Assembly: GCA_964016885.1 (NCBI GenBank) | Contig: OZ024740.1 | Span: 376,216,001 to 376,280,000, forward strand | From: Eledone cirrhosa | Lineage: Eukaryota | Direction: 5' to 3' | Length of the DNA: 64,000 nucleotides | In this document: positions 7,450 to 39,881 of the stretch, in pieces | How the letters are laid out: the number at the start of each line of letters is the position of its first letter | Numbering within the stretch: position 1 is the stretch's first letter | The notes under the pieces: generated by a model | What the model saw: only the letters and a program-made list of their open reading frames with translations | The model's database searches: none | Told to the model about the DNA's origin: nothing | Position numbers and translations under genes: made by a program

Positions 7450-7561
7450 ATATGTAGGAGGTGAGTAATATGTAGAACAATAAAACTATGCATATATCAG
7501 ATAAGTAGCACTCTACAGTTGGCAGAACTGGAGTATATATATATAATAACAATAATAATAA

Positions 7562-10500
7562 AAACGATGGTTTCTGTATTGGCCACAAAGGCTAACATGA
7601 AGAAACATGAACAAAAACATTACAGACTGCACAGAATGGTACAGAACGATACCAATTGGGTTTGGGCCGTGTAAAATGTTTATAACAAGAGCATCAAAAT
7701 GTGTAAAAACAAATTAAAAAAATTCAAAAAGAATTCAAAAAACCACACAAAAGACCATGGCCACCCTGACCACCAGGACAAGCGCCCTCTCTCAATTCTC
7801 CCACTCCTCGGTCTACAGTCTACGGGCCCGTTCACTCGGACCAGACTCGCCACTTTCACCCACTTTTCAACAAACTTACTTGAAGACAGCACTTGCCTCT
7901 CCACCCTCATTTTTCTTCTTCGAGTGAAATTTGAAAACGTTAATTAGGTATTCGCCGGAGAGGAAATTGTCCATCATCAATCCTTTCAACCTCGTCCACC
8001 AGCATATCTCTTTCGCCATGGCCACCAGTCAGATGAAAACTGCCTTCCCTTCCTCCTCCTGAAAGGAGGAAGGTGGGGCTATCTGCACAATGAACTCAGT
8101 CGATAACCTTATCCGTCCTACACACGACAACAACAGTTCGACATAGCCCCACAAGACTGCAATACTTGGGAACTGAACAAGTCCATGCAGAACGGATTCC
8201 TCGCCCTGCGCACAGGCTCGGCTGACAGCACTTTCTTGTCTGTAGATCTTATCTCGGACCGGCAACGCTCCTCGATAGCACTGCTAGGACAGGTATTTCT
8301 GGAAGTTGTCCATCAGCCCCGGGCTGAAAGTTCTCTCGAGGAGAGCGAACAGCTAATCGTCTTCGACGCCCAGGGTCTCCCCGAACGCCGAGGTGGATAT
8401 TCCACCTATACTAATGCCCAACTGGTAGCGGTCGGTGAGCGCTTGGAGACATTCCAAGCGCTATCTCTGTCTTTTCCTCATCCAGGAGTGCAACTCTGTC
8501 AAGGAGACGAGCTGGGGAAAAGCGTGTCTGGCAAACGGCGACCACACCTTTTCACCGTCAAGGAAGCACCAGAATGTCGCAGTCCCAGCGGGTATTTGCG
8601 TATCAAGAGCCATCGTATGCCCAGTCCTTCACGCAATGGTTGTTGACGGCAGAGGCTCTACAATATGGTCAGAGTTGGGCGGGGGCAAGGTACGACGGTC
8701 AGGGGGTAGCAGATGACGGATGCGATGTACGCATTCGCCACCTCCACACGACCTTTCACTGACAGCTTCCTTTCGGCCCATTTCTGGGTGAGAGAGAACA
8801 CCTCGCTCGAACCAGATCCGAGCAATTTAATCGGTCTTTCCGTCCAGCACCCCCACAACGCTGCCGGACGCCATGGACATGCCTCCCCAGGTGCCGAGAT
8901 GCAATCCCACTGAATTTGATGGTGTATCTTTGCTCCTGTCACCGCTTCGCATTCCTTGAGAGCGATGCGCAGCATCTGTACGTGTCTGATGCACGACACC
9001 ACTGCAGTGACGTCGTCAGCGTAGGTCGATACGGACCTCCCACGTCCCAGTTCGCGTGGGACGCCCCTCATCGATTCCAATTTGTGCAGTAAGGGCTCGA
9101 GTGCCAATACGTACAACGCAGACCGGCTGCGACAGATTGACCGTTCACCCCCACAACCGAGCAAAAGTCGTTGTGCATCGCAGCGATCCAACTCTGCAAA
9201 GGAGCTCGAAGCCGGCCGCTTCGAGGACTGCTGCGAGGTACCGACGATTGACCCTATCAAATGTATTAGATTGATCCAAGTTGATCAGGGACCCACCCGT
9301 GCCAGGTCCTTAACTACCCTCCCTAGGATGTATCGCATGAGCTGGAGGTTGTCGTGGATGGATCACCTCCACCAGATCACCCATGACAAGCAGCAATCAG
9401 GTTGCTAACAGCTTGACCAAAATATTGGACTCTGCGTTTAACAGATTTAGGGTCTGAAGTTGTCTATAACGTCCCATTTGTTCGGGTCCTTTCACAGCAG
9501 CGCCACCGCTCCCCGGCTCACACAACTGGGAATGCTCCCGTTCTGCTGCCAGTTGCAGTAGACGTCTGTCAAGAGGTTGCTGAACAAGTCTGGCATTTAC
9601 GCATAAAGCTCGTAGGGCAGACCATCCAAACCTGGCGATTTAGCCCTCGTGCAGTCAGACATCGCTTCCCGTAGTTTACCTGCTGTTAATGGCTTTCGTA
9701 GCACTGCGCTGCAGTAGTCGAGACCCGCGGCAGTCCGGCGAGGTATGCACCGAAGTCCATAGTCCGGTCCGGCCCGCCGCTGCTCCCAAACAATTGAGCA
9801 ATGTTCTGTTGAAAAGCCTCACACATATGCTCAGTTTTGAGTAACATGCGCCCGTTTTGGTCAGGCAAAGACTGAATTGTGGCTTTGTTGCCACGTCGTG
9901 CTTCCACGACCCGGGCCCATTGGACGGCAATTGTTCCCACGTGTTTTAGAGCATGTGCTCTAGCTCTGACAACGCAGCCTTCGTGCTTTGAGTTGAAGAA
10001 CTGGTCGAGTGCCAATCTCGTCGCAGCACCTCGGTTGCGATGCCTGTTCTAAACGCCTCTTCTAGCTTTCTAACTAGCTCTCCCTCTACTCTATTTTCCC
10101 CTAAGGCTACTCCTTTGCTAAGCCTTATCGATTCTACTCTAATTGCCCTTTTCAGGGTAAACCACAACCTGCTGTTGACGATCTCACCCGTCAACGCATA
10201 CTTAACTAATTCACTTATCCGGTCTCTGTATGCTTTGCGCGCCGGGAACCACACGTTCACCTTCCAGTAACCGGCTCCTTGCCTAAAAAATCTATCTAAG
10301 TCGACTTCACAGATCACAAATTTGTGGTCCGTGTAGACGACTATTTTAAATTGGGGACAACCTACTGGGGACATCCTTATCTGTTTCCCTCCAGAATACC
10401 CTATCTAGATGTCATCTGGATGACCCGAAGCGGTTTGCCCATGCCCACAATGGCACATACGGTTAATCCAGTCGGTACCTGTCAGACAGTTGAACACGTC

Positions 10501-12563
10501 TGAGCAGATTGGTGAGGCTTTTAAATCCTCCTCCCTTATTTTCTAGCCCCACATAATCCCAGTGTGCATCTATAATACCGTTCCAATCGCCCACTAATAC
10601 TAAAGAGCGGGACGTTCCTAGAAACGTCTCTAAACGTCTGAAGAAAATCTGGCAGTCCTGCCCCTGTTGGAGCGTAGACAGCTACTAGCCTAAAAGCATT
10701 GCCTTCGCTGCCGGTCAAGTCCAGCACGACCGACTTACCTACTGGGTCTAGGAAGATGGCCCGTATGGCGAGATCCAAGCCTCTCCACAAAATCAAAACA
10801 TCTTCAACACCCCCTCACCGTACCGCCGCTCACGGACGACTGGGAGCTCATAGCTGCCGAAAATCGGTGTGAAGGCTCATGCTTCGGATTTCTGGTCTTA
10901 CTGATGGCCTCCTCATCTATGTTTAGTGACATGAGGTCGGTAAGAAGGGGGCCCTGCTTCCATGATGACCACAGGTCATGTATATTTACACTGGCTATTC
11001 TAAGTAAGGCCATGTTGGGTGAGGAACGGGTAAGTGAGAAAGGATCATTTACCTTTATAGTGTGAAAACGGACAGACGAACCGTCCCTTCGGCTGGTCAT
11101 GGGTGTCTCCAAGATAATGTCCATGTATATTATTTTGGTAAGCTACCCCGTGATTTCTATTTTAAATGTTTATAATTTTCCAGTTTAATCTTGACAATGT
11201 TTATATTTTTTGGTAATGTTCTTGGTGTTGATGGTGTATAGTAACTGTTGTCTCTAATGCCTGTGTGCGGCTTTATACGTTCCATGAATTCTTTATTTGC
11301 AATGTTTATGCCTGTGTAACGTTTTTTGGTTGGGTTTGGTATTGTTGCTGTGTTCTTGTTGCTGCTGTTGGGTATGTGTGCCTTTTGTTTGCGATGATGG
11401 TGTTTGTGGTGATGCTGATGGTGGCGTGGTTGTTGTTGGTTGTGATGATTGTGGTGATGGTGGTGGTGTTTCAGCAAGTTGGTTTTCAGCCTTTACCCCT
11501 CTTTTTTTGCTCTCGGTTTCGGAGGGCGAAGTCAAGGAATTTTTCCTTTTCTTTTTATGGCAGACCTTTTGCCACTCCACTGCCGCCTCACAGGCCATGT
11601 CAGATTCCGTGGGGTCTGGGAGGAGTATGAGCTCCATGGCTGTTGGTGGTGGTAGTGGAGCCGGATCCCGCGACTTTGCCACCCGTGTAGCTACTGCGAA
11701 TGTTGGTGTTTCCGCCAATGCTGCGGTCCCTGTTTTAGTTGTCCGTGGCGTGGTATGGGTGTCATGGACGTTTCCCTCCCAGTCACCGCATAAGGGTCTG
11801 ATGCCTTTGTTGTCTGTCTTGTTCCTAGTAGCAACAGACCAGGCGTCGGAAAGAGGGTGGGCCTTCTTCTTTGTTGTCTTCTTCCAATACCTGACCAGTT
11901 CTCCCTACCTACTCTGCAGTAGCAGCTTGGTCATCCTGCCCTCGACTCCGGCGATGACAGACGTGGCCAGCCAATTTATGGGCATGTCGGGCGGGACCTG
12001 GCTTAATTTGACCCTCACAATCTGCTGCGCGCAGTAGAAGGGCACTAACACTATCTCCTCACTCTTTAGGGTTACCAAAGAGTCAGTCTTCGCTTCTTGA
12101 AGTCTGGCAAAAAGTATGTCTACTGTGGCATAATTTTTGCCTTGGGGGATGAGGGTTTTGCGTGCACACACGCACCTTAAAACCTTTTGAATTTGCGCCT
12201 CCGTGTCTCTTTCCATCCGATGAGCTTTTTTGCTTATTGTGCGGTAATTAACCGTCCGCAGCCGTTCATCTTTGAAAAAACCATGGTGGAGGTTTCAGGT
12301 CGACTCTATTTTCTTTCCAAGTCACCACGTCTCTTGCGACTGCCATCTCCTCCTCCGTGACTACCACTGTCTTTATATTCCGGATCACCTCCGCAAAAGA
12401 AAAGGTCTTTTTCCGTGGCACCATTTTTGCTGCCGCTACTGCTACTACTGGTCTTGTTGTTGGTGCTGGGATCTTTGTTACTGTTATTGATGTTATTGTT
12501 TTCGTTAATACTGTTGCTACTGCTATTGTTGTTGTGGCTGTTGTTATTATTGTCATTGTTTCC
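7562..12563 (-). mobile_element. Tx1/L1-clade LINE copy 1, decayed and 5'-truncated in ORF1
   Basis: APE motifs (RIASVNIHDL, LVAVYAP, TDHK), RT YADD, C-terminal zinc-finger remnant; ORF2 ATG at 11013; AAT-like tracts at 7543-7561 and 12564-12575. Confidence 0.9.
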
Positions 12564-12575
12564 AATAACAATGAT

Positions 12576-15500
12576 GCAAGTCACCCAGTCTCGGTTTCTT
12601 CTTGATCCAGGACTGTAGCTCAGTCAAAAAGACGACAAACGGCGACCACACCTATTCACCGTTTAGGCGGAATATCTGGAGATGCCGCAGCTTCAGCACG
12701 TGTTTGCGCATCATTAGCCACGGCATGCCCAGCCGTCCACGTAGAGGGTGCTGGCAGCAGATGGACCGCCTCACCAACGGAACCTGAACAACTTCACAAG
12801 AATTTGAAGAGAACCCGTTCCAAGCCCGACCTTTCAGTGATAGCTTCCTCGCAGCCCATTTCTGGGTGAGACTGGCTACCCTGCCCCTCACCACGTCCCA
12901 ATCCTTATCCACCTGGAGTTCTGGTCCGAACCAAAACCCGAGCAACCTTACTGGTCCGTCCGTCCAGCGCCCAACGACGCTGTTGGACGGCATGGTCTTG
13001 CCCCTGCAGGTGCCGAGTTGCAAGCCCACCACTTTTCCGGGTTAAGTTTTGTTCCCGTCAACCTTTCATATTCCTCCAATAAGTTGCCGACCACCTCGAT
13101 TTCTGAGGTGTCCGACACCATCACGGTGATTCCGGCACAGTCTTTCGCGTCCAGGTTCGAGCGGGATACCCTGCAAGAGCTCCAGCTTCCTTAGTAAAGG
13201 CTCCAGAGTCAATACGTATAGAAGGGAGGAGAGAGGGCACCCTTGACGGAACTATCGGGAGATCTGAAACGGTTCCGAGAGGTGGCCATTAACTTTGACC
13301 ACTGAGCAGATGCTGCAGTGCATTGCAGCGATCCAGCTTCTGAATACGAGCCGAAGCCAGCTGCCTTGTGGGCAGCCTCCAGGTACATATGGTCGACCCT
13401 ATCGAATGCTTTCGATTGATCTAAATTGATCAGAGCCCCACCTAAACCAGGTTTACACCCTCTCTATGATGTATCACACCAGGTGGAGGTTGTCGTGTAT
13501 GGACCTGTTTGGGATTGCGCAAGTTTGCGCGGCCCCAACCAAATCCCCTCGACGACAAGCACCATCCTCTTCACTAACACCTTGGCCAAAATCTCAAATT
13601 CTGTGTTGAGCAGAGTTATGTGCCTGAAGTTGTCTAATGTGTCCCTCTTTTTCTCGTCTTTCCTTATCAGCGTCACTACGCCCCGGCTCACAGAACTGGC
13701 AATACTCCCGTTCTGCTCTCAGTTGCAGTAGAGCGCTTTGAGGAAATAGGAGAACACATCTGGCATTTTTACGTAAAGCTACAAGGGCAGACCATCCAAA
13801 CCGGGTGACTTGCGCCTCATGCAGGTGACAAGGGCATCCTGAATCTCTGCTGAAGTAATCAGCCTTTCGCAGCGCCCAGTATCGGCCGTCTACAGTTGCG
13901 GCAAGCCATAGAGGTAGGGACTAAAGTCTGCCACCGTTTCTGTCGCGCCACATCCCTCGAACAACCGACCAAAATATTGGCGAAAGGTCGCACACGCCCT
14001 CTTGGAATCGCTCAGCTCGTGTCAAAGACCGAATCTTAGTTTTATTACCACGCTGCGCCTCTGCCGCGAACAGCTTTGGTTCCCTCGTTTCTCAGAACAC
14101 GTTTCTCTTAGCTCTGACAATGCAACATTCGTGTTTCGAATTGAAGAGATGATCTAATGCCATTCTCGCCGCTAGCACGTTAGTTGCAATGCCACTACAA
14201 ATATCCTCGTCTAACTTATCTACCAACTCCCCCTCCTTTCTATTTTTCTCTAACGCTAATTCTTTACTAAACTCTATTGACATTACTCTAATCTCTCTTT
14301 CGAGAGCAGCCACCATCTATTGTTGACGAGTCCCCCTGTCAACCTTTTCTTAACTAAATTTTGACCCGGTCCCTCTAAGCCATACGTGCCGGAAATGACA
14401 TGTTCAGCTTCCAGTAACCAGATCCTAACCTACGCGTTTTATATAGGTCGACCATACAGATCACAAACATGTGATCTGAATAGGCGACCTGTTTAAAACG
14501 TGGACACCTTACACTATTTCTGTCAATTTTCCTAATGAATATCCTGTCTATATACGATCTAAATGACTCTATGTGGTTGGTCCAGGTCCACACTGGCGTA
14601 TTAGGGGAATCTAGTCGGTACCTGTCAGACAGTTGGAACTGGCTCATCAGGTATTTGAGGCTTTTGCACCCTGCGCTCCTATCGGATACTCCCACACAGT
14701 CCCAGCGTGCGTCTAAGATTCCATTTCAGTCAACCGCAAACAGTAAAGGGCGAGACGTACCCAGAAAGACTTCCAGGCGTCTAAAGAAGTCCGGTCGTCC
14801 TGCCCCAGTGGGGGCGTGGCCGCCCACCAGTCTAAAGACACCACTTTCGCTATTGTTCACATCCAGGACTACCATCTTACCTCCGGGTCCCGGAAGATCG
14901 ACCTTACCACGAGATCCAGGCCTTTCCTAAACGGCACTGCCACCCCATCTCCCATCCCCGGCTAACCAACAGATACGAAGATCTGATAGTCGTCGAAAAT
15001 GGGGGCTAGTGCGTGCGTGTCGGAAATCCTGGTCTTGCTGACAGCAATTACATCCATTTCTAGAGACATGAGTTCGTTGAGCAGGTGACCTTGCTTCCAG
15101 GATGATCCCAGGCCTCAAATATTTTAAACTACCTATTCTTAATACGGCCATGTTGGCAGTCTTGTGAAGATCGGGTAGTTTGATCTCCATAGTGGTGGGG
15201 TTACTTTTGGGAACCCCTTTAAAAATCTTGAAGTGGGTTTTACGTTCGGGGTTCCCACGTCCCGACGAAAGCTGTCTCGTATCTATTTGTATAAGTCGAG
15301 CAGTATTCGCACAGGAAACAAATCTTCCGGCACGCGAAATGTGCTCTATTTTAAAATTTCCCCCTTTTTTTGTATTTCTTCACTTCGTTCTATGAGGGCC
15401 GTAAGTTCCGTGTTGGCTCTTCTCACGAGCACGAAGTTTTGTATGCTTTGTTGGTATGATTTTATTTGTTTGCATGGCCGTGGTGGTGATGGTTTTGATA

Positions 15501-17306
15501 GTGTTGTTTCCGTTGTGTCTGTGTTTGTTATGAGTGCGGTGTCTGTGCTTTCAGATGTGTGGGTGTGTATTTGTTCAGGCGTCTGTTTAGGTTGTTTGCG
15601 TTTGGGGAATTCTGGTGATGGTGATGGTGGTCTTGGTGTTGGTGCTGTTGTGACGATGTCTGCGTGGGTGGTGTCTATTTTTTATTATGGATGTTTTTGT
15701 ACTTTGTTGAGTTTTTTTCTTTTTGTGTTTCTTTTTTTGTATTTTGGGGGATTTTGTTTTTCTTTCATCTTCACTATTGGTAGATGAGGGGTCTGCGTCT
15801 GTAAGTGTGTCTGTATCTGTGTGTGTGTTTGTGTTTTTATTGATCTGTGTATTTTGGGGGGAGGGGGAATTGATCAACATTCCTCGTTTCCCTCCTGGGT
15901 GGTCAATGTTGGTGGTGGTGTTTCTATTGGTGTTGTTGATTGTGGTTTTGCCGGTGCTAGTGTTGGTTGTGATCCTCGCCCCGGCGTCGGCAGCAGTGGA
16001 GACCTTCGACCCATTGCATCTTTCAGCAGTTGAGGGTGAGTGCAGAAGGCTCGCAAATGGGTTTTTTCCCACAAACGAAACAATGCGGCCTTTTGATCTC
16101 AGTCATAATGTGAATGACCGTCTCATTCTGAAGATGTATGTGGTCCGTGATTGTTTTGACATACCCCGGCATGATCTGGAGAAGTATCTCCAGGTCAACT
16201 CCGGACCAGTCCTCTCTGGCAGTTCTTGTTACTTCTATCGGGACTTTATCCGTCATCTCCACAATCATACATCCCAGAAGTCACGACATGTCAAGTGCTG
16301 TTGGGATTCAGGTAAGGCGGAGACGGGCTGTTCTTTTTCCTTGTTGGTTTTGCAAGGTCTCATAGTATGTTTCATAGCAAGGGCTTCTGACTTAAACAGC
16401 ACCGAAATGGTGCCGTATTGTCTGTCCCTCGCTATGTATTATTCGGTATCATCCCTGATGCACCTCAGCTCGACTTCGACATCTGTTTGTGGAACTAAAT
16501 CTGCCCCTTAGATTTCTGCTGAGATGCATATGTAATGCACAGTTCTGCGCTCCACTGCTTCAATGGCTTCTACCGGGACAGTTAAATTGGCCCAGGTTTT
16601 CTCTTGCATGATGAGCTTCCAGGCCTCGGCCAAGATTTCATTTTTGTTCAAGAGGTCGAAGCTGAAGCATGGCCTCTTTTTGGCTGCTACCGCAACGAAA
16701 GTATTATTCTTGTTGTCGTTGGTGGTGTGGTTGTTGTTGTCGTTGTTCTTCTTGGTGTTGTTGCTGTTAATACTGTTGCTGATGGTTATATATTTGGTGC
16801 CGCCGTTGTTGTTGTTCTCGGTGTAGTTGGTATTGTTGCTGTTGTTTTCATGTTAGTGGTGTTAATATTGTTGTTGCATTTGTTGTCACTTTTTCTGTTG
16901 TCTGTATTTTGGTTGTCGCTGTTACTGTTGAGGTTGGTGTGGTCATTTTTTACAAAATTAATGTTCTCAGTGTTGTTTTCATTGGTGTCTTTCTTCACGT
17001 TGTTTGTGGTGGTGGTTGTTGTATGAATTTCTGTAAATTTCGCCGTGATGCTCCTCTCAACTTTTACGTTGTTGTCACACGAAAGCAGACATATCGCTGG
17101 GGGCGTGGCTCAGCCATGTTCTTTTTATTTTTTCCATAATATGTTAAAATGTAAAAAGTTCAAATATTTGGGCCCAAAAGCCTTTCCCCTCACAGAGCAA
17201 AGTCCAAGTCTTATATCTCTTGCACAACAAAATTAAACAATAAATAAGTTTTGACAGGTAAATAAAGAGACTTATGGGAGCGAGCAGAAAGACGTCCGTT
17301 CAGACC
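12576..17306 (-). mobile_element. Tx1/L1-clade LINE copy 2, 5' end present, 3' end missing, decayed
   Basis: ORF1 with zinc-knuckle remnant (RPHCFVCG..THLRAFC); ORF2 ATG at 15151 with APE and RT fragments. Confidence 0.88.
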
Positions 17307-17324
17307 AATAATAATAATGATAAT

Positions 17325-20300
17325 GATTTAATGTATTAGCCACAAGGGCCGCCGACATGTAGGGGACAATACAAAGACAGGGAGAGTGGGGGTTTACAAT
17401 AAAGTCGAGTAAAAGTGCACAATGGAAAGACTAATTTAACAATGAAGATTTAAAAAATATAAAATAAACTATGCATAAATATAACAAAATAAATTACCCG
17501 ATAGGGGGTGGAAGACCCTGGGGTGACTCGGGTACCCCATCAATCCTGAACCACCCTGCGCTTCTAGGGCACCCAGGGAGAGCACCCCTCTCCTCAAGTT
17601 AGCTAGCCTATAGGCGCATGGTCAGAGTAGGCCCATTGACACGGGCCATTCTCGCCACATTCATCCACCTTTTAGCAAATGTACTGGGGGGCAGCACTTC
17701 TCTGTCCACCCTCACCTTCCTTTCCAGGTGAAACTTGAAGAAGTTGCTGATGGATTGGCCGAAGAGAAAAGGGTCTGTCTTCAGTCCTATTAATCTGGTC
17801 CACCATATAACCTCTTTTGCAACTGCCACGAGACAGAGGAAAGTTTCCTGCTCTTCCTGACCTAAGGAAGGCGGCGGTTCGATCTTCACTATGGACTCGC
17901 CCGATAGCCGGATTCGTTCCACACGCGACCGTAGATGTTCGACATAACTCCACAAGTCAGTAATGCACGGACATTGGACAAATGCGTGCAGAACGGTTTT
18001 GTCGTTCTGTGCGCATCTTGGGCAGGTCCGTCTGACAGCACTTCAGTGCCCCCCGATAGCACTCAACGCATGTCTGCGAATCATTAACAACGGCATGCCC
18101 AGCCCTCCGCGTACAGGGTTCTAACAGCAGATGGAGCGCCTCACCAACGGAACTTGTCTCCTCCACAAGAATTTGAAGAGGAACCGTTCCGATTTGACGA
18201 GGCGCGGACGGGGGAAAGGCACGACGGTCAGGCGGTAGTAGATGACGGACGTGATGTACGCATTCGCCACCTCCGCGCGACCTTTCAGTGATAGCTTCCT
18301 CCAAGCCCATTTTTGAGTGAGACTGGCTACTCTGCTCGTTACCTCGTCCCAATTATTTTCTACCTGGAGGTCTGGTCCGAACCAAACCCCGAGCAACTTT
18401 ATCAGCCTGTCCCTCCAGCGCCCCACGACGCTGTTGGACGGCATGGGCTTGCCTCTCCAGGTTCCGAGCTGCAAGCCCACCGACTTTTCCCGGTTAAGTT
18501 TGGCTCCTGTCAACCTTTCATATTCCTTCAATAATGTGCCGACCACCTCGATTTCTGAGGTGTTCGACACCATCACGGTGATGTCGTCCGCATAAGCCGA
18601 CACCGCCTTTCCATGCCCCGGTTCGATCGGGATGCCCTGAAACATTTCCAGCTTCCGCAGTAAAGGCTCGAGAGTCAATACGTACAGAAGGGAAGAGAGG
18701 GCACCCTTACGGACTGATCGGGAGCGCCGAAATGGTTCCGAGAGGTTGCCATTAACCTTTACCACCGAGCGTGTACCGCTCTGCATTGCACGATCCAGCT
18801 TCTGAAGACAGGGCCGAAGCCAGCTGCTTTGAGGACAAACTCCAGATACCAATGGTCGACCCTATCGAATGCTTTCTATTGATCTAAATTGATCAGTGCC
18901 CCACCGAAGGCAGGTTTACACCCTACTCTCTCTATGATGTATCGCATGAGATGGAGAGTGTCGTGTATGGACCTGGCTGGGATTGCGCAAGTTTGTGCCT
19001 CCCCAACCAAATCCTCGACAACAAGCGCCAATCTCTTTGCAAATACCTTGACCAAAATCTTAAACTCTGTGTTGAGCAGAGTTATGGGCCTGAAGTTTTC
19101 TAATGTATCCCTCTTGTTCTCGTCTTTCCTTATCAGTGTCACCACTCCCCTCCTCACAGAACTGGGAATACTCCCATTCTGCTGCCAGTTGCAGTAGAGT
19201 GCTTCGAGGAGATCGGAGAACAAGTCTGGCATATTTACGTAAAGCTCATAGGTCAGGTGACTTGCGCCTCATGCAGCCGACAAGGGCATCCTGAATTTCA
19301 CTGAAGTAATCGCTCTTTCGCAGCACTCAGCATCGAACGTCGAGATGCGCGGCAAGCCTTCAAGTAGGGACTGAAATCCGCTACTCTCTCTGACTTGCCA
19401 CTCTCCACGAACAACCGAGCAAAGTGCTGGCGAAAGGCCTCACACATCCGCTTGTAATCGCTTATTTCGTGTCCGTCTCGGTCCGCCAAAGACTGAATTG
19501 TGGTTTTATTACCACGCTGCGCCTCCACCACGCGGGCCCATCGAACAACTTTGGTTCCCTCGTTTCTCAGCGCACAACATTAGCTCTGACAATGCAACCT
19601 TCGTGTTTCGCATTGAAGAAATGGTATAATGCCATTCTCGCCGCTAGCACGTCAGTTGCAATGCCACTACAAATACCCTCATCTAACTTATCTATGAGCT
19701 CACCCTTCTTTCTATTTTTCTCTAACACTACTTCTTTGCTGAACTCTACCGAAGTTACTCTAATCTCTCTTTTGAGAGCCTCCCACCATATGATCCCCCT
19801 GTCAACTTTTGCTTAACTAAATTGTTGACTCGGTCTCTGTAAGCATTACGTGGCCGAAATGACATGCTCAGCTTCCAGTAACCCTGTCCCAACCTACGCG
19901 TTTTATCTAGGTCGACCATACATTTCACAAATTTGTGATCTGAATAGGCGACCGTTTTAAAAAGTGAGCAACCTACACTATTTCTATCTATTTTCCTAAT
20001 GAAGATCCCGTCTATATACGATCTAGATGACCCCATTCGGTTGGTCCATGTCCATACTGGCACATTGGGGAAATCTAGTCGATACCTGTCAGACAGTTGG
20101 AACTGGCTGAGTAGGTGCTTGAGGCTTTTGCACCCCCGCTCCTATCAGCTACTCCCACACAATCCCAGCGTGCGTCTAAGATGCCATTCCAGTCCCCCGC
20201 TAACAGTAAAGGGCGAGACATACACAGAAAGTTCCAGGCGCCTAAAGAAGTCCGGTCGTCCGGCTCCTGTAGGGGCGTAGACGGCCACCAATATAAAGGC

Positions 20301-22147: not shown

Positions 22148-22203
<56 letters not shown>
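22148..22203 (+). repeat. (AAT)n tract between Tx1 copies 3 and 4
   Basis: Pure AAT repeat. Confidence 0.97.
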
Positions 22204-25847: not shown

Positions 25848-25881
25848 GTTGAAAAGGAATGGAAAAGATGGGAAAGACCAC

Positions 25882-27837: not shown

Positions 27838-28045
27838 TTTTTTTCAAAGAAATTTTTTGATAATAATAAAAGTTAAGATTTTGGGCACAAGGCCCCAATC
27901 TTTTTGGGTGTCCTTTTCGGAAAACAATCTATGTGTGCTTATAAACAGTTAACAATAAAATTTTCCATAAATGGCAATTTTTAACAAACGGAAATAACAA
28001 ACTTTTGCGGAGCTCACGATGATACGATTTACTACGTAGGTCGCC

Positions 28046-28095
<50 letters not shown>
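28046..28095 (+). repeat. (AAT)n tract between the Tx1 copy 4 head and the Dong head
   Basis: Pure AAT repeat. Confidence 0.97.
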
Positions 28096-31000
28096 GGGAG
28101 AACGACCCCTCTAGTCTTGGTTGACACTCATTCTAGAAGTGGTAACACGAAATGATTACCCCTTGGCGGATAAGGATAAAACGGGACAAAATAAAGTAAA
28201 TGTCTAATGATAAAATCTCATACCGGATCGGCCGTCACCCGGGTAAAAAAGGGCCGCGTCCCTCAGAGAGGAACCAGACTGGGGTCGAAAAATCAGCTAA
28301 TGGTTCAAACCTGCCCATCACTTCGGAGCTGGAGACCTCGCATAACCGGAATACTCCTACTGTTGGCCCTCCATGCTCACCACCAAGAAATCCAAAGAAA
28401 AAGAGAGAAAAATGGTCAAGGGAAGATAATAAAGAAGTCCTTGAGGCTTTCTACACTGCCATGTACTACCCATCAAATACATCGAATACAGAACAGACAT
28501 ATATCCACTGGAAAAAGAAACATCCCGAAAACAGCGGCTATATTGACAGCAACAAACTAGCCAATATACGAAGAAATATTGTAAGAAAAAAGTTACTAAC
28601 TGATATAGAAATTGATCAGATCAAGCTATTAGCACAAAGTCAGCGAAGGGAAAATGAAACATGTGTCAGTGAAAACGAGGTAAACTGTAATACTTCGAAT
28701 CCCAGGGTTGGGGCGGAATCACTGGCAACAGAAAAAATTAAAGAAAGGATCGAAAAAGTGGAGGGAGTGCATGCTCAGGATGAAACTCCAAATGAAAATA
28801 ATGAGATCGTAAATGATAAAGAAATGAATGAGAATGAACTTGCCAACTTGAAGGATGAAATTATGATCGAATGGATGAAAATGAAAGAATCTGACATGGG
28901 GAAACGAGACACCCTCCCTAAGATCCAGAACTCCAAACAGAACCAAAAGATAATACACAAGACTAACATAATTCTCAAAAACATTATCATCACAAACAAA
29001 CTAAACATTACTGATTTAAATCATCTCTATTATGCATCGGCTAAAGTCACCACTCACTTATGTGGAGTGAAGATGAACAAACAAAGTAATTCCCACAAGA
29101 AATCTACTTGGCAAGAGAACATCAATCGCCAAATAAACCTTCTCCGATCTGACATAGAAATTTTAACAAACTATAAAGTGGATGAACATGTTAAACAAAC
29201 TAAACTTAGAAAATTGAAAAAAAAGTACAGTATAAAATCAACATGTGACATAGACATGCTGATAGAAATAATCAAGCAAAAAGTGTCGGCCAAAGCTGCT
29301 CGTATAAGGCGCTTTGAAAAACGATCTAGATTCTATAAGGACAATGATATGTTCAAAAACAACCAAAGAAACTTCTACAGAAAAAGTGGTAAGTCAACAA
29401 TAACTGCTAAATCAATACCACCCAAGGAGGAAGTGCAAGAATTCTGGGAAAAGATCTGGACCGAAGAAAAAGTTCATAACATACATGCCCCATGGATAGA
29501 CAGACAAATGAAAGATACAGTCACCTTGAGGAACAAACATGGGAAAATATAACAGTTGAACAGTTGCGCTTGGCTCTAAGAAAAACCAGCAAATGGAAAT
29601 CCCCAGGAAAAGACAAAATACAAAACTTTTGGATAAATGCCTTCACAGAGTCTCATGAGCTGTTAGCCCAACTTTACAATGAAATAGTTGAGGAGCCAGA
29701 AAAGATACCTTCATGGCTAGTTAACGGCATTATATTCCTGCTTCCGAAGAATGATGAGACAAACAATCCCAAAAATACAGACCGATAACTTGCTTGACCA
29801 CAATGTATAAAATTTTAACATCAGTCCTAACTGAATACACATATGACCACCTGATAACAAATGACCTATTTCCCATTGAGCAGAAAGGGTGTAAACGAGG
29901 CTCATATGGCTGTAAGGATCAGCTTCTGGTTAACAAAATGATACTGGAAGACTGTCATAATAGACACAAAAATCTATCGATTGCTTGGATAGATTATAAA
30001 AAAGCATTTGATAGTTTGCCACACAGTTGGATTGAAAAATGTTTAGAGATTTTCAAAGTATCCCCCGTTGTCAGGAGGTTTTTGTCATTCAGTATGAAGA
30101 CATGGAAAACGACACTCCTTTTGAATAGTGAAACAAAATCACTGGAAGCTGGAGAAGTTAATATTAAGTGTGGAATTTTTCAGGGTGACTCTTTATCACC
30201 GCTTTTATTCTGCATCGCACTTATACCATTAAGTAAAATGCTCAATGAAACAAAACATGGATATAAAGTCTATGACAAAACCATTAATCACCTGTTCTAC
30301 ATGGATGACCTGAAACTATTTGCAAAAAATGATGAACAATTGCAAAGGCTATTATCCACTGTGAAGCAGTTCAGTGATGACATTAAAATGGAGTTTGGAC
30401 TAGATAAATGCGCCAAAGCAACGTTCACCAGAGGAAAGCTGCTGAAGAGTTCAGACATTAATCTTGATCGGGGGAACGTGATAAGAGAACTTGATCAAGA
30501 AAAAACTTACAAATATCTAGGTGTTTGTGAAGGAGACGGAATCAAGCACTCGACAATGAGGGAAAGGATAAGGAAGGAATGTTACCGCAGAGTGAGGGCA
30601 ATCTTAAAAACGGAATTGAATGCAAGGAATAGGATCGATGCCATAAACACGCTTGCCATACCAGTAGTAACCTACAGTTACAATGTCATCAACTGGTCAA
30701 GCACAGAGATCCGTAGGCTCGATACAAAAATTCGAAAATTCTTAACCATGCACAGAATGCATCACCCTAAAGCAGATATAGATAGAATATATCTCCCTAG
30801 GAAAGAAAGAGGACGTGGGTTAATCCAGTTAGACATTGCGTTGAAAACTGCAACAATTGGATTATCTACATATCTAAGGGAATCACATGATTGGATGATC
30901 AAACTCGTTTTGAAACACGAAAGCATCAAAAGATCATATTCCATTACAAAAGATGCACAAAGATACAGTAATGGACTACAAATTTCAGAAGTCCCATTTA

Positions 31001-31992
31001 CTGCTGAAATGGAAAACACAGAAAAAGCAAAGCAGGTAAAAGTAACTGCAAAGAAAGAACTGCTACAGAAACGGGCTAAGAAATGGCAAGAAAAGCCTCT
31101 GTATGGAAAATACCCAGAGCGAGCTAACAATCCTGATGTTGACAAAACTTTAACCCATCAGTGGTTGGCATCCTCTGGACTGAAATCGGAGACTGAAGGA
31201 CTGATTATATCGGCACAAGATCAGTGTCTGCCAACAAAAAATTACCAAGCCAACATAATAAAAAATGGGTGCAGCCCATTATGCCGTGTATGCAAAAAAC
31301 AACCAGAGACCATTGACCATATAATTTCAATGTGCAGTCCTATAGCTCCAACCGAATACCTAAACAGGCATGACAGAGCTGCACAATACATACATTGGAT
31401 AATGTGTAAGCATTTTGACCTGCCCCATCAAAAGAATTGGTGGGAGCATCAACCACCTCCCATACTTGAAAAAGATCACATCTCAATCTTGTGGAACTTT
31501 AGCATCCAAACAGACCGAAAAATAGATGCAAACAGACCTGATATAATATTGAAAGACTTTCAAAAGAGGGTATGGCTGCTAATTGATATGTCTGTTCCAA
31601 TAGACAAGAATGTATCTATAAAAACATTTGAAAAATTGAGCAAGTATAAGGACCTGGAGATAGAAATTGGAAAAATGTGGAAATTGAGAACTAAAACAAT
31701 ACCAGTGGTTGTAGGCGCTCTGGGAATGATACCTAAGGGGTCTAATGATTACATATCGCAAATCCCAGGAAAACCGCGTATAGGAGAAATACAAAAGATA
31801 GTACTAATGGGAACTGCCCATATACTAAGGAAGATTCTGTCAATATAAGTACATCACAAGTCTAAACACTAAAGATGCATGTGTGAATATGTATGTTCTT
31901 TCTTGAACATGGCGGACCTTGTTGTCTCTTGAGGTCACTGGTTGTGACTTGGTGATAACTCGTATGAACATAAAGCAAGATAAATGCAACTG
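28096..31992 (+). mobile_element. R4/Dong-clade non-LTR retrotransposon 1, full length, in (TAA)n
   Basis: Single long RT-RLE ORF; (TAA)n at both ends (28046-28095 and 31993-32011). Confidence 0.92.
28200..31848 (+). pseudogene. RT plus restriction-like endonuclease of Dong 1 (two frameshifts, near 29510 and 29775)
   Basis: WKSPGKD, EQKGC, WIDYKKAFDS, GIFQGDSLSP, YMDD, CRVC..ETIDHIISMC, RHD, RPDI..D, EKLSKY. Confidence 0.93.
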
Positions 31993-32011
31993 TAATAATA
32001 ATAATAATAAT

Positions 32012-34599
32012 GTTTTCTTTATTAACCACACGGGTTTACATAAAGTAGACATTAAGGACAGTACAGGACAATACAGGACGGTACAAATGGGCATTTCTGC
32101 GTGTAAAAAAAACAGAGGATGAAATAAAATAACAAAGAAAAATTCCCCAATAGAGGGGAGACTTCCGAGGGACATTTGTGGAGAAAGCCCATTAAAAGAC
32201 CACAGTGACCCTGACCACCAGGGCAAGTGTCCTCTCCCAGTTTCCCACCCTTAATTTACAGACACATACTCAGAGAAGGCCCATTCATTCGGGCCATACT
32301 TGCTTCCCTCACCCATCTTTCAACAAAATGCTGCTACCCTGATTTTTCTTTTCAAATGAAATTCGAAAAAGTTTATCAGGGCATCACCGAAGAGGTAAGT
32401 GCTCGTCTTCAGCCCTTTCAAACGTGTCCACCATACTATCTCTTTCGCCATGGCCACCAGACAGATAAAAACTGCCTGCCCTTCCCGGCTAAAGGAAGAG
32501 GGCGGGGCAATCCTCACGATGGACTCAGCTGATAGCTGGATCCGTCCTACACGTGACAGCAGGTGTTCGACATAAACCCACAAGTCAGCAATGCTCGGAC
32601 ACTGGACGAGTGCGTGCAGGACGGTTTCGTCGCCCTGCGCGCATCTCGGACATGCCCGGCTGGAGGCACCTCCATGCCTGTAGAGTTTATCCCAAACTGG
32701 CAAGGCTCCTCGGTAGCACTGCCAGGCCAGGGATTTCTGGAAGTTGTCCATAGGCCCCGGCCCGAAAGTTCTTCCGAAGAGATTGGCTAGTTGATTTTCG
32801 TCGACGCCTAGAGTTTCCCCAAGTACGTCGTCGCTCTTCCCCTCCACTAATCCTCTATAGAACGCCGAGGTGGAGTTTCCACCGATCACATTGCCCGATT
32901 GGTCGAGGGCTGTGAGCGCCTGAAGACATTCCAGTCTCCAAGCGCCCCCTCTCGGTCTTCGCTTGCCCAGGACTGCAGCCCGTCAAGGAAACGAGCTGGG
33001 GAAAGACGTGTCTAGCAAACGGCGACTACACCTGATCACCGTCGAGGAAGAGGTAGAGACGTCGTAGCCTGAGCGCGTGTCTGCGCATCATCAGCCACGG
33101 CATGCCAAGCCCTCCACGTAGCGGGTGTTGACAAGGCGGGGCTTAGGACAAGGTACGACGGTCAGGCGGTAGCAGATGACAGACGCAAAGTACGCGTTAG
33201 CCACATCCGCTCGACCTTTCAGGGATAGCTTACTCTCCGCCCATTTCTGGGTGAGAGAAGCCACCCTGCTCGTTACCTCGTCCCTGTTTTTGTCCGTCTG
33301 GACATCCGGACCGAACCAGACCCCTAGCAATTTAACCGGTCCGTCCGTCCAGCGTCCGACGACGCTGTTGGACGCCATGGACCTGCCTCTCCAGGTGTCG
33401 AGCTGCAGGCCCACTGACTTTTCCTGGTTGATCATTGCTCCTGTCACCTCTTCGTATTCTCTTAGTGTAGTGCAGATCGGCTCAATGTGTTTGGCGTTCG
33501 AGACGACTACGGTGACATCGTCCGCATATGCTGACACGGATCTTCCGCATCCTAGTTCGCGCGGGAGGCCGCTCAACGTCTCCAGTTTGTGCAGTAATGG
33601 CTCGAGAGTCAATACGTACAAGAGGGACGAGAGGGGACATCCTTGGCGGACCGAGCGCATGATGTTGAACGGTTCCGAAAGGTGACCGTTCACTCTCACC
33701 ACAGAGCAGATGTCGCTGTGCATGGCAGCGATGCAGCCTCTGGAGATGGGCCCAAATCCAGCCGCCCTCAGGACTGCCGCTAGGTAACGATGGTCGGCCC
33801 TATCGAAAGCTTTCGACTGATCTAAATTGATCAAGGACCCACCCGTGCCAGGTTCCCTAGCTACCCTTTCTACGATGTATCGCATGAGGTGGAGGTTGTC
33901 GTGGATGGATCTGTCGGGAATGACGCACGTCTGCGCCTCTCCCACCAGACCACCAACGACAAGCCCCAACCTCTTTGCTAGCACCTTGGCCAAAATCTTG
34001 AGCTCTGTGTTTAGCAGAGTTATGGGCCTAAAATTATTTATGTTATCCCCCTTGTTCGGAACCTTTCTCAGCAGCGCCACCGCTCCTCGGATCACAGAGC
34101 TAGGAATTCTCCCGTTCTGTTGCCAGTTGCAGTAGACGTCCGCCAAGAGGCCTCCGAACAAGTCTGGCATCTGTACGTAAAGTTCATAGGGCAGACCTTC
34201 CAAACCAGGCGATTTACCCCTTGTGCAGCTAGTCATTGCCTCCCGTACTTCAGCGGCTGTTATCGGCTTTTCGCAACACTCCTCCTCAGTGGCCGAGAGC
34301 CGCGGCAGTCCGTTGAGGTAGACACTAAAGTCCAACCCTCGATCCGGCCCACCGCTGCCTCCGAACAGTTGAGCGAAGTGTCGCTGAAAAGCTTCACACA
34401 TTTGCCCGAGATCGAGTAGCATGCGCCCGTCGTGGTCCACCAAAGACCGGATCGTGGCTTTGTTGCCACGACGCGCCTCCGCCACTCGAGCCCATTGAAC
34501 GGCTTTCGTCCCCTCGTGTCTGAGAGCACGCACCCTAGCTCTGACAACGCAGCCTTCGTGCTTTGCATTGAAGAATTGGTCAAGGGCCAATTTCGCCCC
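32012..34599 (-). mobile_element. Tx1/L1-clade LINE copy 5, 5'-truncated, same subfamily as copy 4
   Basis: Closely similar to 22204-24864, with small internal deletions near 32335 and 33133; (AAT)n on both sides. Confidence 0.95.
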
Positions 34600-34665
<66 letters not shown>

Positions 34666-34686
34666 AAGAAGAAGAAGAAGAAGAAA
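34600..34686 (+). repeat. Compound (AAT)n(GAA)n microsatellite
   Basis: Direct reading. Confidence 0.95.
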
Positions 34687-35519
34687 AAAAAAGAATAGGT
34701 AAGAAAACGCACACGGTGGAGATATATCGTTATGGAATCGCTCCCTAAGTTTTTGATTTTTTCTTATTTAAAACAACTGTGATAGAATAATTCTTATTAC
34801 AGATGAAATATAAGATTACAGTTTTTTACCCTCAGCAGGCGACAACACATCACATTACGGCATAGGACACCAATATTTAATATTTAATTTTGGATCAGAA
34901 ATGTTATAGTCGAAAAAGAGAAAAATGACTAAGTGAACAGACAGGCAAATAATTTCACCACCAACACCACCACCACCACCATTACCACTACCACGCCAAA
35001 AACTCTAGTGAAGTTACCTCAACTTCTATTTCTACTTCAACTTCAACATCATCACTACAGTACTACGATCACATCACCACCACCACTGCCTCATTATCGC
35101 TACCGCCGCTATTCTCTCCCACTACGTCCTGCTAAGTACTACTAGCACATCACCACCACCACCACTGCCTCATTATGGCTACCACCGCTTTTCTCTCCCA
35201 CTACCTCCTGCTAAGACAGGCATCATAGTATTCCCACTAAATAAGGGAGGCATCAAAAGATATAAATAGACTGATTTATTGACCCGGTCAAAAAATCAAA
35301 AAAATCAAAAATAAAAATAAAAACAGCACAGCAGCAACAAAAAACGTAAAGAAAAGAAAAAAAAAGAAAAGATAAACAAACAGACAGACAAGCAAACAAA
35401 CTAAGTCAGACATTCAAACATTACATTACAATGAAACTTATGCTTATTTTTTGGGGTTTTTACCTATTTGTTTGTTTGTTTATCTTAGCTGTTGTTTCTT
35501 TTTACTTTTTCCTGTCTAC

Positions 35520-38500
35520 AGTGTGATTGTGCCACGCTAAAATCACCGAGGGTGATCAAATCACCGGAGGTGATGAAATCACCGGTGGTTATGTAACCAT
35601 ACATTCACCAATCCTCGATAAGAGTGTTCCAATGTCGATCCTAAACAGTTCGAATAACGGTGAAGTGGAGACTGGAATGTCATGTGACAGACTCTCACCC
35701 AGCAGGTGCTCCCTGGCTCAGCAGCAGGGACCTGGCTGTCAACCAAATACTGCTGGTGTCGGAGGAGAAGAAGGAAAGGGACCAGAACCAACTGGACGAA
35801 AGAATTGAATAGAACTGTTATGCAATGTTACCTGAAGAGTAACCCCAAGGAGAAAGGCTATAGGAAACGGATGCATAACATCTGGAAGGAGATTGGTCTC
35901 TTTAAATTGATGAACAACAATTGGCCGGCAGGCTCGGGTAATAAGAACTAATGGGTGGATAAGCGAGCTGGAATTGGAGGAACTGAGCAGAGAGATTAGG
36001 TTGGAAATGGAGAGTGGAGTATGCCAGGCAAACGAGCCAGTGGGAAATGAAGGTGAAGAGGTTGAGAGAACGGAGGAACCTTCCGAAGCAGACAATGATC
36101 TGAATGCTGAAACAAATAATACCTAGAACAGAGATACGGCCATTGAGGAGATGAATGCTGACGGGCTAGGACAAGATTTGTTTGATATCCTAAACTTAGT
36201 GGTAGATGAAATGAACAATAATAGTGGGAAAACTATGAACCTAAGATTTGTAGACAGGAAAAAGTTAAAAGAAACAACAGCTAAGATAAACAAAATCACC
36301 CCATACCTTGAGGCGAGGAGCCTTCACCAGTGCAACAATATCCTCAAAGCAACAGCAAATGCGGTGAGGAAATTACTTGGCATAAAAGCGAGAGGAAACA
36401 ACAGACAAGAAAGATCAGAACCTTGGTGGAAGAAACGACTGGATGGTAAAATCAGGGAAATGAGAAATGACATTGGAAAGCTTGAGTCCCTATTGAAGGG
36501 GACACTAAAAAACATAGACACTAAAAATATACTGGTAATAAAGTACAAAACTCTGAGGAAAAGGCTAAATATTATCATAGAGGAACTGAAGCAACGCATT
36601 GTAGCAAAGAGTGCAAAAATTAGGCGATACGAGAACAGAGTCAGTCAGTATGGACAGAACCGCATGTTTGACAACAACCAGAGGATGGTGTTTGGACAGC
36701 TTGAAGGGATTGAAAGACGCAACGACTTGATCCCTGAGGCGGAACAAACTAAGACATTCTGGAGAGGAATATGGGAGCAGGATGTTAAACATAATGACCA
36801 GGCAGTGTAGATTGAGACAGTACAAAAGGAGATTAGTGAACAGGCACACCAACAAACTGATTTGAGTATCACAGTTGAAACTCTTAAGGGGCAGGCCAAA
36901 AAACTAACCAACTGGAAAGCACCAGGCCCAGACGGTGTGCAGGGGTATTGGATTAAAAATATAACATCCCCCCACCCGAAACTGACAACCATGTTCAATG
37001 ACCGCTTGATGTCAGGTGAGGTACCAGAGTGGTTGACAAAAGGTACCACTGTTCTGATAATGAAAGACCGAATCAAGGGTAATGATGTTACCAACTATAG
37101 ACCTATCACATGTCTGTCCGTAATGTGGAAACTGTTGGCAAGCATTGTGTCTAAGGAAATCTACCATCACCTCCACATAAACAACTTGTTACCGGACGAA
37201 CAGAAAGGATGCCGAGAGAAGCCCCGTGCTACAAAGGACCAGTTACTTATTGATAAGATGCTAATGAGGAATTGCAAGAGGAGGCACACTGGTCTTGCCA
37301 TGGGATGGATAGATTACAAAAAGGCATTTGACATGGTGCCTCATTCTTGGATCACCAAAAGCCTAGAGATCTTCAAGGTGGCAGATCACATCAGACAGTT
37401 GTTGAGCAAAAGTATGAAGTCCTGGAAAACAGAGTTAACATCAGCTGGAGAATCCTTGGGAGGCGTGAAGATCAAGAGATGTATCTTCCAGGGAGATAGT
37501 CTGTCCCCTCTGTTGTTTGTCCTTGCCCTGATGACCCTGACCATTATACTGCAAAAGGTGAGAGCAGTATACAAGTTGGGAAAGGGAGAGCTTACCATCA
37601 ATCACCTCCTCTTCATGGACGATCTTAAGCTTTTCGGGAGGAGTGAGAAGGAGTTGGATGTGCTTGTTGACACTGTCGGTATTTTCAGCAATGATATATG
37701 TATGCAATTTGGTATTAGTAACTGTGGAATCCTTGTGATGAAGTGGGGTAAATTGAGCAGAATCAACGGAATCCAGGTACCAACAGGTGAGATGATAAAG
37801 GAAATTTACACTGAAGAAGGATACAAGTATTTGGGTGTTCTGGAGGCTGATGACATCAATAACAAAAAATGAAGGAATTGATAAGATCTGAATACATTCG
37901 GAGAGTAAGGAGCGTATTAAAGTCACATCTGAACAGTAGAAATGCCATAAGTGCAGTAAATTCCCGAGCTGTGTCTATTATTAGGTACAGTGCGGGAATT
38001 CTGAGATGGAATGTTGCTGAACAAAAAGAAATGACTAGGAAGCTATTGACTATCTACAACATGTTCCACAAGAGGAGTGATGTCGATAGACTCTACTTAA
38101 GGAGATCTGAAGGTGGAAGAGGTCTTATCAGCATAGAGGACTGTGTTCAGATGGAGAAAAACAACCTACACAAATACGTGACTGATAGTAAGGAGCCAAT
38201 GTTCAGAATTGTACTGAAGGAGAGGACGATAGACCAGGGGATGTCCAAGGAGTAAATAACAACAAGGAGAAAGAGCAGCCTTCATTAAAAATCCCTTCAT
38301 AGTACCTTCTTTGAGAAAACTTAATTCAGAGACCCACAGACATGGAACTGGTTGAAAAGATGTGACCTTAAAAAGGCTACAGAAGGAATGTTAATGGCTG
38401 CGCAAGAGCAGGCCCTCAAAACGAAGTCGCTGAAACACCATATTTACAAGGAGGGGGCTAGCCCACTGTGCAGGATATGTGGAGAGAGAGAGAGGAGACT

Positions 38501-39120
38501 GTGGCTCACATTGTATCCGAGTGTAAACACCTAGCCCAGTTTCACTATAAAGGCTGGAGACATGATATGAGGGGCAGGCTGATCCACTGGCACCTATGCA
38601 AAGTAAACAATTTACCACATTCTGAGAAGTGGTATGAGCATAAGCCAGAGTCGGTGAAAGAAAACGATCAGGTGAAGGTGCTGTGGGATTTTAGGATACA
38701 GACGGACAAGAAACTGGAACACAATAGACCTGACCTGGTGGTTTTGGACAAGGAAAAAAGATCGTGCCTGATAGTGGATGTGGCCTGCCCATTCGACACG
38801 AGAGTGCAAGAGAAGGAGAGGGAGAAAATTAACCGATACCAGGACTTAAAGTGGGAGGTAAAAAGGATTTGGAACTGCCATGAAGTCAAAGTGGTCCCGA
38901 TTGTCATAGGCGCACTAGGTACTATCTCAAAAGGTTTCCAGGGATGGTTAAAGAAAATTAGCCCCGCCGCGCTGTTTGCAACACTTCAAAAGGCATGCTT
39001 GCTGGGAACAGCAAGAACCCTTCGATACGTCCTGAATATCTGAGGCTGCAGGCAGTGGCTTGATATTCATTTCAACAAACTTTCCAGTTAACTAACATCA
39101 ATGACTGAGACTCAAAGAAC
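35520..39120 (+). mobile_element. R4/Dong-clade element 2 (different subfamily), multiply frameshifted; 5' boundary uncertain
   Basis: WKAPGPDGVQGYW, YRPITCL, FMDD, CRIC..ETVAHIVSEC, RHD, NRPDLVV..D; ends in (AAT)n at 39124-39205. Confidence 0.9.
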
Positions 39121-39123
39121 AAC

Positions 39124-39193
<70 letters not shown>

Positions 39194-39207
39194 GTAATAA
39201 TGATGAT

Positions 39208-39593
39208 CCCGTGGTTTTGGACAAGGAAGAAAGATCGTGCCTGATTGTGGATGTGGCCTGCCCATTTTACACGAGAAGGTAAGAAAAGGAGATGGAGAAA
39301 ATTAGCGGATACCAGGACTTAAAGTGGGATTAAAAATGATTTGGAACTGCCATGAAATCAAAGTCGTCCCGATCGTCATAGACGCACTAGGTACTATCTC
39401 AAAGAGTTTCCAAGGATGGTTAAAGAAGATTAGTCCAGCCCCGCGTTTTTGGAACACTTGAAAAGGCATGCTTGATGGGAACAGCAAGAACCCTCCGATA
39501 GGTCCTGGTTATCTGAGGCTGAAGGTAGTGGCTTGATATTCATTTCAACAAACTTTCCAGTTAAATATCATCAATGACTGAGACTCAATGAAC
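39208..39593 (+). mobile_element. 5'-truncated copy of Dong 2
   Basis: Repeats 38738-39120 with substitutions; followed by an AAT tract at 39594-39613. Confidence 0.9.
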
Positions 39594-39881
39594 AATAATA
39601 ATGATAATAATAAGGACGATCTGTTATGTCTTCATTACATTTATTGAGTAGTGACACGCGTTTCACTATTGGTCAGCTGACGGTTCAATCTGTAACGATC
39701 TAGCTCGACTCTGGAATCAAAGGTTTGTCGGTCCTCTCCTGTAATGACAGAATGAACCTCTTAGGGCGTAGATAAAATCTCTCTAGTGAACCTACAGTAA
39801 CTTGACGGTACAATCCCTATTTTTGCGTTTCACTTCGCTTTTCCTGCCCGCCGAAAATGCGATTCTCGCTGAATCTTTATT

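Follow-up and report, generated by a model that had tools for sequence, protein, structure and literature searches.

In a 64-kb window of the Eledone cirrhosa genome (64,000 nucleotides of contig OZ024740.1, C1:376216001-376280000 of a 3.0-Gb assembly whose contigs are cited here as C1, C2 and C28), we located eight retrotransposon copies between window positions 7569 and 39593 by self-alignment and translated searches. Five L1-group copies with an apurinic-type endonuclease (APE), hereafter Tx, lie on the minus strand, and three R2-group copies with a restriction-like endonuclease (RLE), hereafter Dong, lie on the plus strand, at the places and on the strands that a first-pass annotation of the window had given them. 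We interpret this array, set in AAT repeats, as a long instance of a pattern found throughout the genome, in which elements inserted serially and their polarity was set jointly by the nick preference of the endonucleases and by pairing of the RNA tails with the target, a reading to which we assign a probability of about 0.82.

The genome-wide flanks of both clades support this reading. Whole-genome pattern counts placed AATAATAA after 633 of 682 exact Tx 5' ends, with 0/682 on the opposite strand, and TAATAATAA after 2320 of 2478 3' ends of the first Dong family (Dong-1). Because only 0.1% of positions start an AAT match on one strand (a 13/15 match, scored in 20 stretches of 10 kb spread evenly over C1 and C2), the AAT spacers of the array are not due to chance. 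In best-match sets that include the window's own copy, AAT was present at 30/30 Tx 3' ends and 29/30 Tx 5' ends, and in the old subfamily of Tx copy 2, whose flanks were visible in only four other copies, all four showed AAT or a short AAT-like run. A survey of neighbours over five sets of 30 junctions classed the neighbour as Tx, Dong or a short interspersed nuclear element (SINE) at 108 of 150 junctions, none of the 108 in the wrong orientation. Viewed in element sense, AAT adjoined no Tx end, and ATT was found at Dong ends in three cases, apparently copies whose 5' part is inverted. The strict opposite polarity proposed for the array thus extends across the genome, and tabulating flanks and orientation over genomic copies, a check that the first-pass annotation had suggested, returned linkage to AAT and non-random orientation. 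Its treatment of the locus as a special case did not stand, as this arrangement is found at hundreds to thousands of sites and the next neighbour was another member at 24 of 30 unselected Tx 5' ends (the first 30 exact ones on C1). Since such continuation rates are high, a train of eight members is long but expected. In an unselected 200 kb, taken as 20 evenly spaced 10-kb stretches, at least 11 of the 17 AAT tracts touch a member, and 14 kb (~7%) belong to the two clades. Two further unclassified repeats stand to the right of AAT tracts, at 6 and 7 junctions (window 56262-57000, L042, L110, L209 and L231 for one; L036, L096, L230 and L270 for the other), and may be additional AAT-targeting families.

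That AAT is a target and not merely an element tail, as the first-pass annotation had proposed, emerges from the 5' junctions. The tracts at 28046 and 34600 each lie between two 5' ends and, being head to head, cannot be 3' tails. Dong copies chosen by their 3' end carried AAT at arbitrary 5' truncation points in 13/17 cases for family 1 and 20/25 for family 2 (scored by eye). A SINE of 190 bp, with a Tx-like 3' end, Tx polarity and a head that is weakly tRNA-like at a lowered ARAGORN threshold, gave readable insertion sites; its similar 3' terminus, shared target and shared orientation suggest that it is a likely partner mobilised by the Tx element. Among 36 SINE copies with both ends, 11 in pure AAT were set aside, and 15 of the 25 informative ones showed duplications of 10-21 nt, all 15 ending in AAT, with A (12) or G (3) as the next base; 200 shuffles of mismatched pairs gave a mean of 1.0 and a maximum of 5. 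These sites have merely 6-7 AT-rich bases before the nick, with no repeat needed after it, and three independent insertions used one nick inside the second Dong family (Dong-2) with different duplication lengths, the empty state being present in other Dong-2 copies. Non-periodic duplications of 7-20 nt ending in AAT were found in 8 of 37 non-full-length Tx copies, and several truncated Tx copies had inserted at the same position of another repeat. A repeat that contains an AAC/AAT-rich stretch was hit repeatedly by Tx at a single position with differing truncation lengths (L310, L311, L320, L322 and L328; empty form in L230). Because truncated Dong 5' junctions keep AAT and Tx and SINE duplications end in it, AAT is a target. 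The associated idea of a self-renewing landing pad also fared well, with duplications mostly of 14-21 nt renewing about six units per event; since no Dong duplication is readable, renewal by Dong rests on the tracts at its two ends.

Within the array, the left edge is a degenerate AAT tract (7545..7568, plus strand) beside a (TA)n run, which forms the 3' flank or tail of Tx copy 1 (7569..12563, minus), an old L1-group APE element, 5'-truncated in ORF1 and heavily broken. A 9-bp spacer, AATAACAAT (12564..12572, plus), separates it from Tx copy 2 (12573..17306, minus), which belongs to an old subfamily, retains its 5' end and has lost ~0.9 kb of its 3' end. An AAT tract of four perfect units plus degenerate ones follows (17307..17324, plus), then Tx copy 3 (17325..22147, minus), of intermediate age with internal deletions and frameshifts, and an (AAT)18 tract (22148..22203, plus; run from 22150). 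Tx copy 4 (22204..28045, minus) is full length at 5.84 kb, with a CCHC knuckle in ORF1 and APE, reverse transcriptase (RT) and zf-RVT of ORF2 in several frames. Beyond it, the (AAT)16 tract (28046..28095, plus) stands head to head before the Dong-1 copy (28096..31992, plus), which has RT, a C-terminal zinc knuckle, RLE and two frameshifts and lacks ~1 kb of the 5' untranslated region (UTR) of the complete 4932-bp Dong-1. The (AAT)6 tract after it (31993..32011, plus; run from 31994) is tail to tail between two 3' ends. Tx copy 5 (32012..34599, minus), 5'-truncated at 2.59 kb and 94% identical to copy 4, is joined through (AAT)12 followed by (AAG)16 and an A run (34600..34693, plus, the second head-to-head tract) to the Dong-2 copy (34694..39123, plus), full length at 4.43 kb with a long 5' UTR and a broken ORF. 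An (AAT)23 tract plus degenerate units (39124..39201, plus) precedes a short, 5'-truncated and older Dong-2 copy (39205..39593, plus), 90% identical to the 3' end of the preceding one, and a degenerate AAT tract forms the right edge (39594..39613, plus). All eight copies are disrupted by frameshifts, stops or truncation. Eight of the nine AAT spacers claimed at the outset are AAT runs; the one at 12564 was rejected as a true tract, consisting of 9 bases that repeat 7545-7553 between the 5'-truncated copy 1 and the 3'-incomplete copy 2, possibly the target duplication of copy 1. Expansions of (AAG)n at the extreme 5' end of Dong copies (window 34636-34693, L113, L152 and L155) are likely slippage, the Dong start being purine-rich. 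The array abuts the end of an older, unclassified abundant repeat (39614..39880), usually found after TA/AAT runs, with 4218 first-look candidates genome-wide at ~85% identity, which may be the source of the array's seed tract.

The group-level assignment of the copies to the L1 group (APE) and the R2 group (RLE) was tested directly. Minus-strand copies match APE endonuclease PF03372 and RT PF00078, with APE N-terminal of RT in ORF2, the L1-group arrangement; an open copy of the family has human L1 ORF2p as its best solved-structure match (residues 17-868, E 3e-50), and a separate upstream ORF1 of 483 aa with a CX2CX4HX4C knuckle is present in L193; together with the 7-20-nt target-site duplications, this too fits the L1 group. 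The Tx protein has its closest named relative in the octopod Argonauta hians (65% identity). The clade label, Tx1-like, rests on this architecture and on CCHC knuckles in ORF1, which we take to be a Tx1 feature. More than 20% of flanks of one type has been set as the mark of sequence-specific insertion (PMC4494074), and the 633/682 Tx 5' flanks lie above it, in line with the site-specific insertion of the Tx1 clade. Plus-strand copies have a single ORF whose RT best matches R2 proteins (E 6e-30), a second, weak stretch of similarity covering RLE; the C-terminus carries a zinc knuckle and a PD..D..K endonuclease motif, the R2-group arrangement, and the Dong-2 copy L232 has an open frame of 1141 aa. 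Dong-like copies sit in TAA repeats with TAA on the sense strand at both ends. Lack of an N-terminal zinc finger separates R4 from R2, NeSL and HERO, and a pattern scan found no C2H2-type motif in either Dong-like N-terminus. The Dong element of Bombyx has a ribozyme like that of hepatitis delta virus (HDV), and no HDV-like ribozyme matched in Rfam at gathering score within 7000-40500. For the element proteins, a protein-cluster atlas returned only generic RT clusters, and the RT matches of the Tx and Dong-like proteins included no named clade reference sequences. Open, natural ORFs of these elements are present elsewhere in the genome, among them the Tx copies L373 and L350, in which the GDWN and YADD motifs are intact.

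The elements are more diverse and their ages less ordered than the first-pass annotation had it. In place of two families, the Tx copies represent at least four subfamilies, 67-78% alike, with copies 4 and 5 94% alike, and the Dong copies represent two families, with amino-acid identity of ~50% in RT and 40% in the C-terminus. Best identities to other sampled copies, from loci enriched in young families, were 85, 90, 94, 99, 99.7, 97.5, 98 and 92% from left to right, and genome searches with Tx copies 1 and 2 gave best matches of likewise just 81-90%. The one-way age gradient that had been suggested was accordingly rejected, since identity peaks in the middle and falls at both ends; its other part, that the middle is youngest, was retained. 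One Tx subfamily (L197, L201, L213, L350 and L352) has its 3' 3.7 kb in common with window copy 4 and a different 5' UTR and ORF1, which is a modular 5' replacement. Outside the array, the window holds decayed, distant L1-group fragments that are not beside AAT (43567-44685 and 61288-61419, both plus), a GC-rich region (53217-55791) with an RT match (PF00078 at 54160-54864) of another LINE (long interspersed nuclear element) type, and two long frames without a Pfam match (45781-47343, plus; 353-1390, minus). Elsewhere, L228 (C1:295000001-295010000) is a 10-kb degenerate short-unit satellite with very long open frames of up to 2961 codons.

Several observations weigh against serial insertion into an AAT target. 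Ten of the 25 informative SINE copies had no duplication; just 9 of 33 Tx '5'-truncated' ends adjoin the repeat, in a set that includes internal deletions, inversions and subfamily breaks; many of the 37 non-full-length Tx copies showed neither tract nor duplication; full-length Tx copies with an informative left flank outside tandem arrays had the expected duplication in 2 of 14 cases; none of 107 Dong copies with both ends had a clear informative duplication; and neither a read or contig spanning the array nor an empty allele was seen in the four runs examined. In full-length Tx, part of the 5' AAT may derive from the element itself, or later insertions may have altered the flank; a leader of repeat sequence on the RNA, of the kind described for R2 (PMC3774820), may likewise explain the absent duplications. 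If one clade simply left AAT tails and neighbours gathered because AT-rich, open DNA is a weak hotspot, the frequent absence of duplications in full-length Tx, the truncated copies with no tract at their 5' end and the partly RNA-derived 3' tracts would all be accommodated; we consider this very improbable, since it is already contradicted by duplications ending in AAT, and the two head-to-head tracts, the AAT at arbitrary Dong truncation points and the lack of any polarity violation among 108 neighbours also speak against it. A comparably slim chance is left to the train having arisen by tandem duplication, unequal crossing over or misassembly instead of separate insertions. Tandem arrays of Tx and of Dong do occur in this genome, at C1:441.09 Mb and C28:114.44 Mb, and the missing spanning read or contig would fit such an origin, but the window copies fall into six subfamilies that are 67-94% alike and differ in truncation points and spacers; tandem duplication was rejected for the window array on this heterogeneity, and the copies are too divergent from each other for an assembly duplication. 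Raw reads of another study contain a Dong-2 3' end, AAT and then a truncated Dong-1 or Dong-2 5' end, together with AAT loose ends at the Dong-2 3' end, so the junction pattern is not an assembly product; runs X1 and X2, which hold a small share of the flank, were left out of the evidence, and scans of metagenome contigs for the loci of relatives gave no confirmed relative. As for the tandem arrays themselves, C1:441088000-441147999 (L372-L377) holds at least 8 units of ~6.05 kb of one Tx subfamily, 98.3-99.9% identical and with a shared degenerate spacer, which is post-insertion tandem amplification, and a similar unit spacing occurs at C2:188.06 Mb. At C28:114441535-114459689 (L092-L095), Dong-1 is repeated with a period of ~4955 bp, three units being 100% identical over 3.3 kb, either a recent duplication or an assembly artefact.

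Target-primed reverse transcription is established for these clades, and under it the priming nick must fall on the AAT strand for Tx and the SINE and on the ATT strand for Dong. This part of the earlier inference about nicked strands follows from orientation, and the nick itself could be placed for the Tx machinery only, where it is likely at AAT^A/G because the duplications end in AAT with A or G as the next base. Under serial insertion, the Tx protein would nick the AAT strand at AAT^A/G and prime from the left flank, with a second nick some 14-21 nt away duplicating about six units, and the Dong protein would use the ATT strand for priming, within pure tracts that are several units long. 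Where RNA 3' ends run into the repeat, they would pair with the nicked end and, with the endonuclease preference, fix the orientation. Every insertion would leave tract on both sides, so that later elements of either clade could land beside earlier ones; insertion at the array would have spanned ~85% to >99% identity, the middle having received the most recent copies.

That the two endonucleases are convergently specialised for opposite strands, as the first-pass annotation had proposed, would be a stronger claim. RNA-tail pairing alone could set the polarity, because both repeat strands offer TpA steps: both endonucleases would cut either strand at AT-rich TpA steps, with priming confined to the strand able to pair with the tail. 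This is a variant of serial insertion without 'convergent enzymes', and we give it a substantial chance, somewhat short of even. The L1 primer is T-rich, and SINE sites are similar. Besides TpA being present on both strands, the few AT-rich bases that SINE sites require before the nick favour it, as does the RNA-target annealing proposed for SART1 (PMC7265360). Endonuclease swaps between TRAS1 and SART1, by contrast, moved target choice (PMC7265360, PMC1919474), which makes the enzyme the main determinant in this closest studied pair, and Dong, located almost only in pure tracts, suggests real sequence recognition. A bolder version, in which APE and RLE endonucleases independently evolved to read opposite strands of one 3-bp repeat, AAT microsatellites serve as two-lane landing pads that explain a large part of the LINE clusters and AAT tracts in the genome, and one break is sometimes primed at its two ends by the two machines, yielding head-to-head chimeras, appears unlikely to us. 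Slightly more doubtful still is that some head-to-head pairs arose in one event, a double-strand break in the repeat being primed by Tx RNA at one end and Dong RNA at the other, a twin priming by two different elements. In its favour, the geometry is suitable, both clades show ordinary 5' inversions (L217, L156 and L168), and at least 5 of the 37 non-full-length Tx copies meet an internal Dong position head to head, with no AAT in between (L006, L027, L195, L209 and L349). Against it, R2 is well known to delete upstream target sequence, with microhomology at its 5' junctions (PMC3774820), both families often carry internal deletions, and head-to-head neighbours are frequent anyway (15/30). Such AAT-less joins are most simply upstream deletions at the 5' junction. 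Across these loci and L060, several joins overlap by 1-3 bases, and in L006 and L122 the Tx copy is broken at the same position. Other details of the 5' regions are short, locally templated duplications at truncated-Dong 5' junctions that resemble repeated priming attempts (L048, L088, L114, L195 and L247) and, at ~850-900 of the Dong-1 5' UTR in L220, a segment similar to the SINE/Tx 3' end, with a short run of ATT after it.

Most components of the proposed serial insertion have published counterparts. Dong elements target the TAA microsatellite (PMC3812793), and those of Bombyx mori, DongAg and DongBg of the snail Biomphalaria resemble the window Dong in their TAA target and in a single ORF with RT and C-terminal RLE; TAA lies upstream on the sense strand in known Dong, as seen from primer design (PMC3774820), and likewise in the window families. 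Unlike known Dong, two families with thousands of copies here share their tracts with an APE clade and a SINE. Microsatellite Tx1 elements include Kibi in (TC)n, Koshi in (TTC)n, crocodilian elements in (TTCC)n/(TTTC)n and Tx1-1_ACar in telomeric repeat, and SINEU is mobilised by Tx1-Mar (PMC4494074, PMC10088271); like the window Tx, these are L1-group APE elements that target a simple repeat, insert in tandem around a duplication and have a SINE as passenger. ATT/AAT is not among the Tx1 targets in passages of those two papers, the target figure and supplement of PMC4494074 lying outside the comparison. TRAS and SART enter Bombyx telomeric (TTAGG)n in opposite directions and form arrays, TRAS1 nicking between T and A (PMC7265360, PMC10088271); both are R1-clade APE elements confined to telomeres, whereas the window system, a member of neither family, works in the same manner with unrelated endonucleases on an interspersed microsatellite. 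Keno (Tx1, APE) and Utopia (RLE) reached U2 small nuclear RNA genes in parallel (PMC4640811), with the same 3' flank, the same orientation and a gene target, whereas the window elements use opposite strands of a 3-bp repeat and form mixed trains. In Octopus vulgaris, 1129 Dong-R4 and 421 L1-Tx1 recent insertions and unexplained hotspots of transposable elements were reported, and the words 'target' and 'nested' are absent from the main text of that paper (PMC13282606). Searches of the full-text literature turned up neither a Tx1 element that targets AAT/ATT nor a train in which Tx1 and Dong are mixed; Repbase, Kojima and Fujiwara 2004 and the PMC4494074 supplement, which lay outside the search, may include a target of this type.

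Dong on TAA, Tx1 on microsatellites, opposite polarity (TRAS/SART) and APE-RLE convergence (Keno/Utopia) are thus already published, and what is likely new is their combination, a Tx1-type AAT target shared with Dong and mixed trains of two clades. ATT/AAT is likely a new target for Tx1-type elements, and in genomes of this kind neither AAT markers nor insertion calls from short reads are reliable. As both clades have young, open copies, the system provides a natural side-by-side case for asking which of the two, endonuclease or RNA tail, determines strand and orientation, and it offers a simple cause for LINE clusters and for the abundance of AAT microsatellites in octopod-like genomes.

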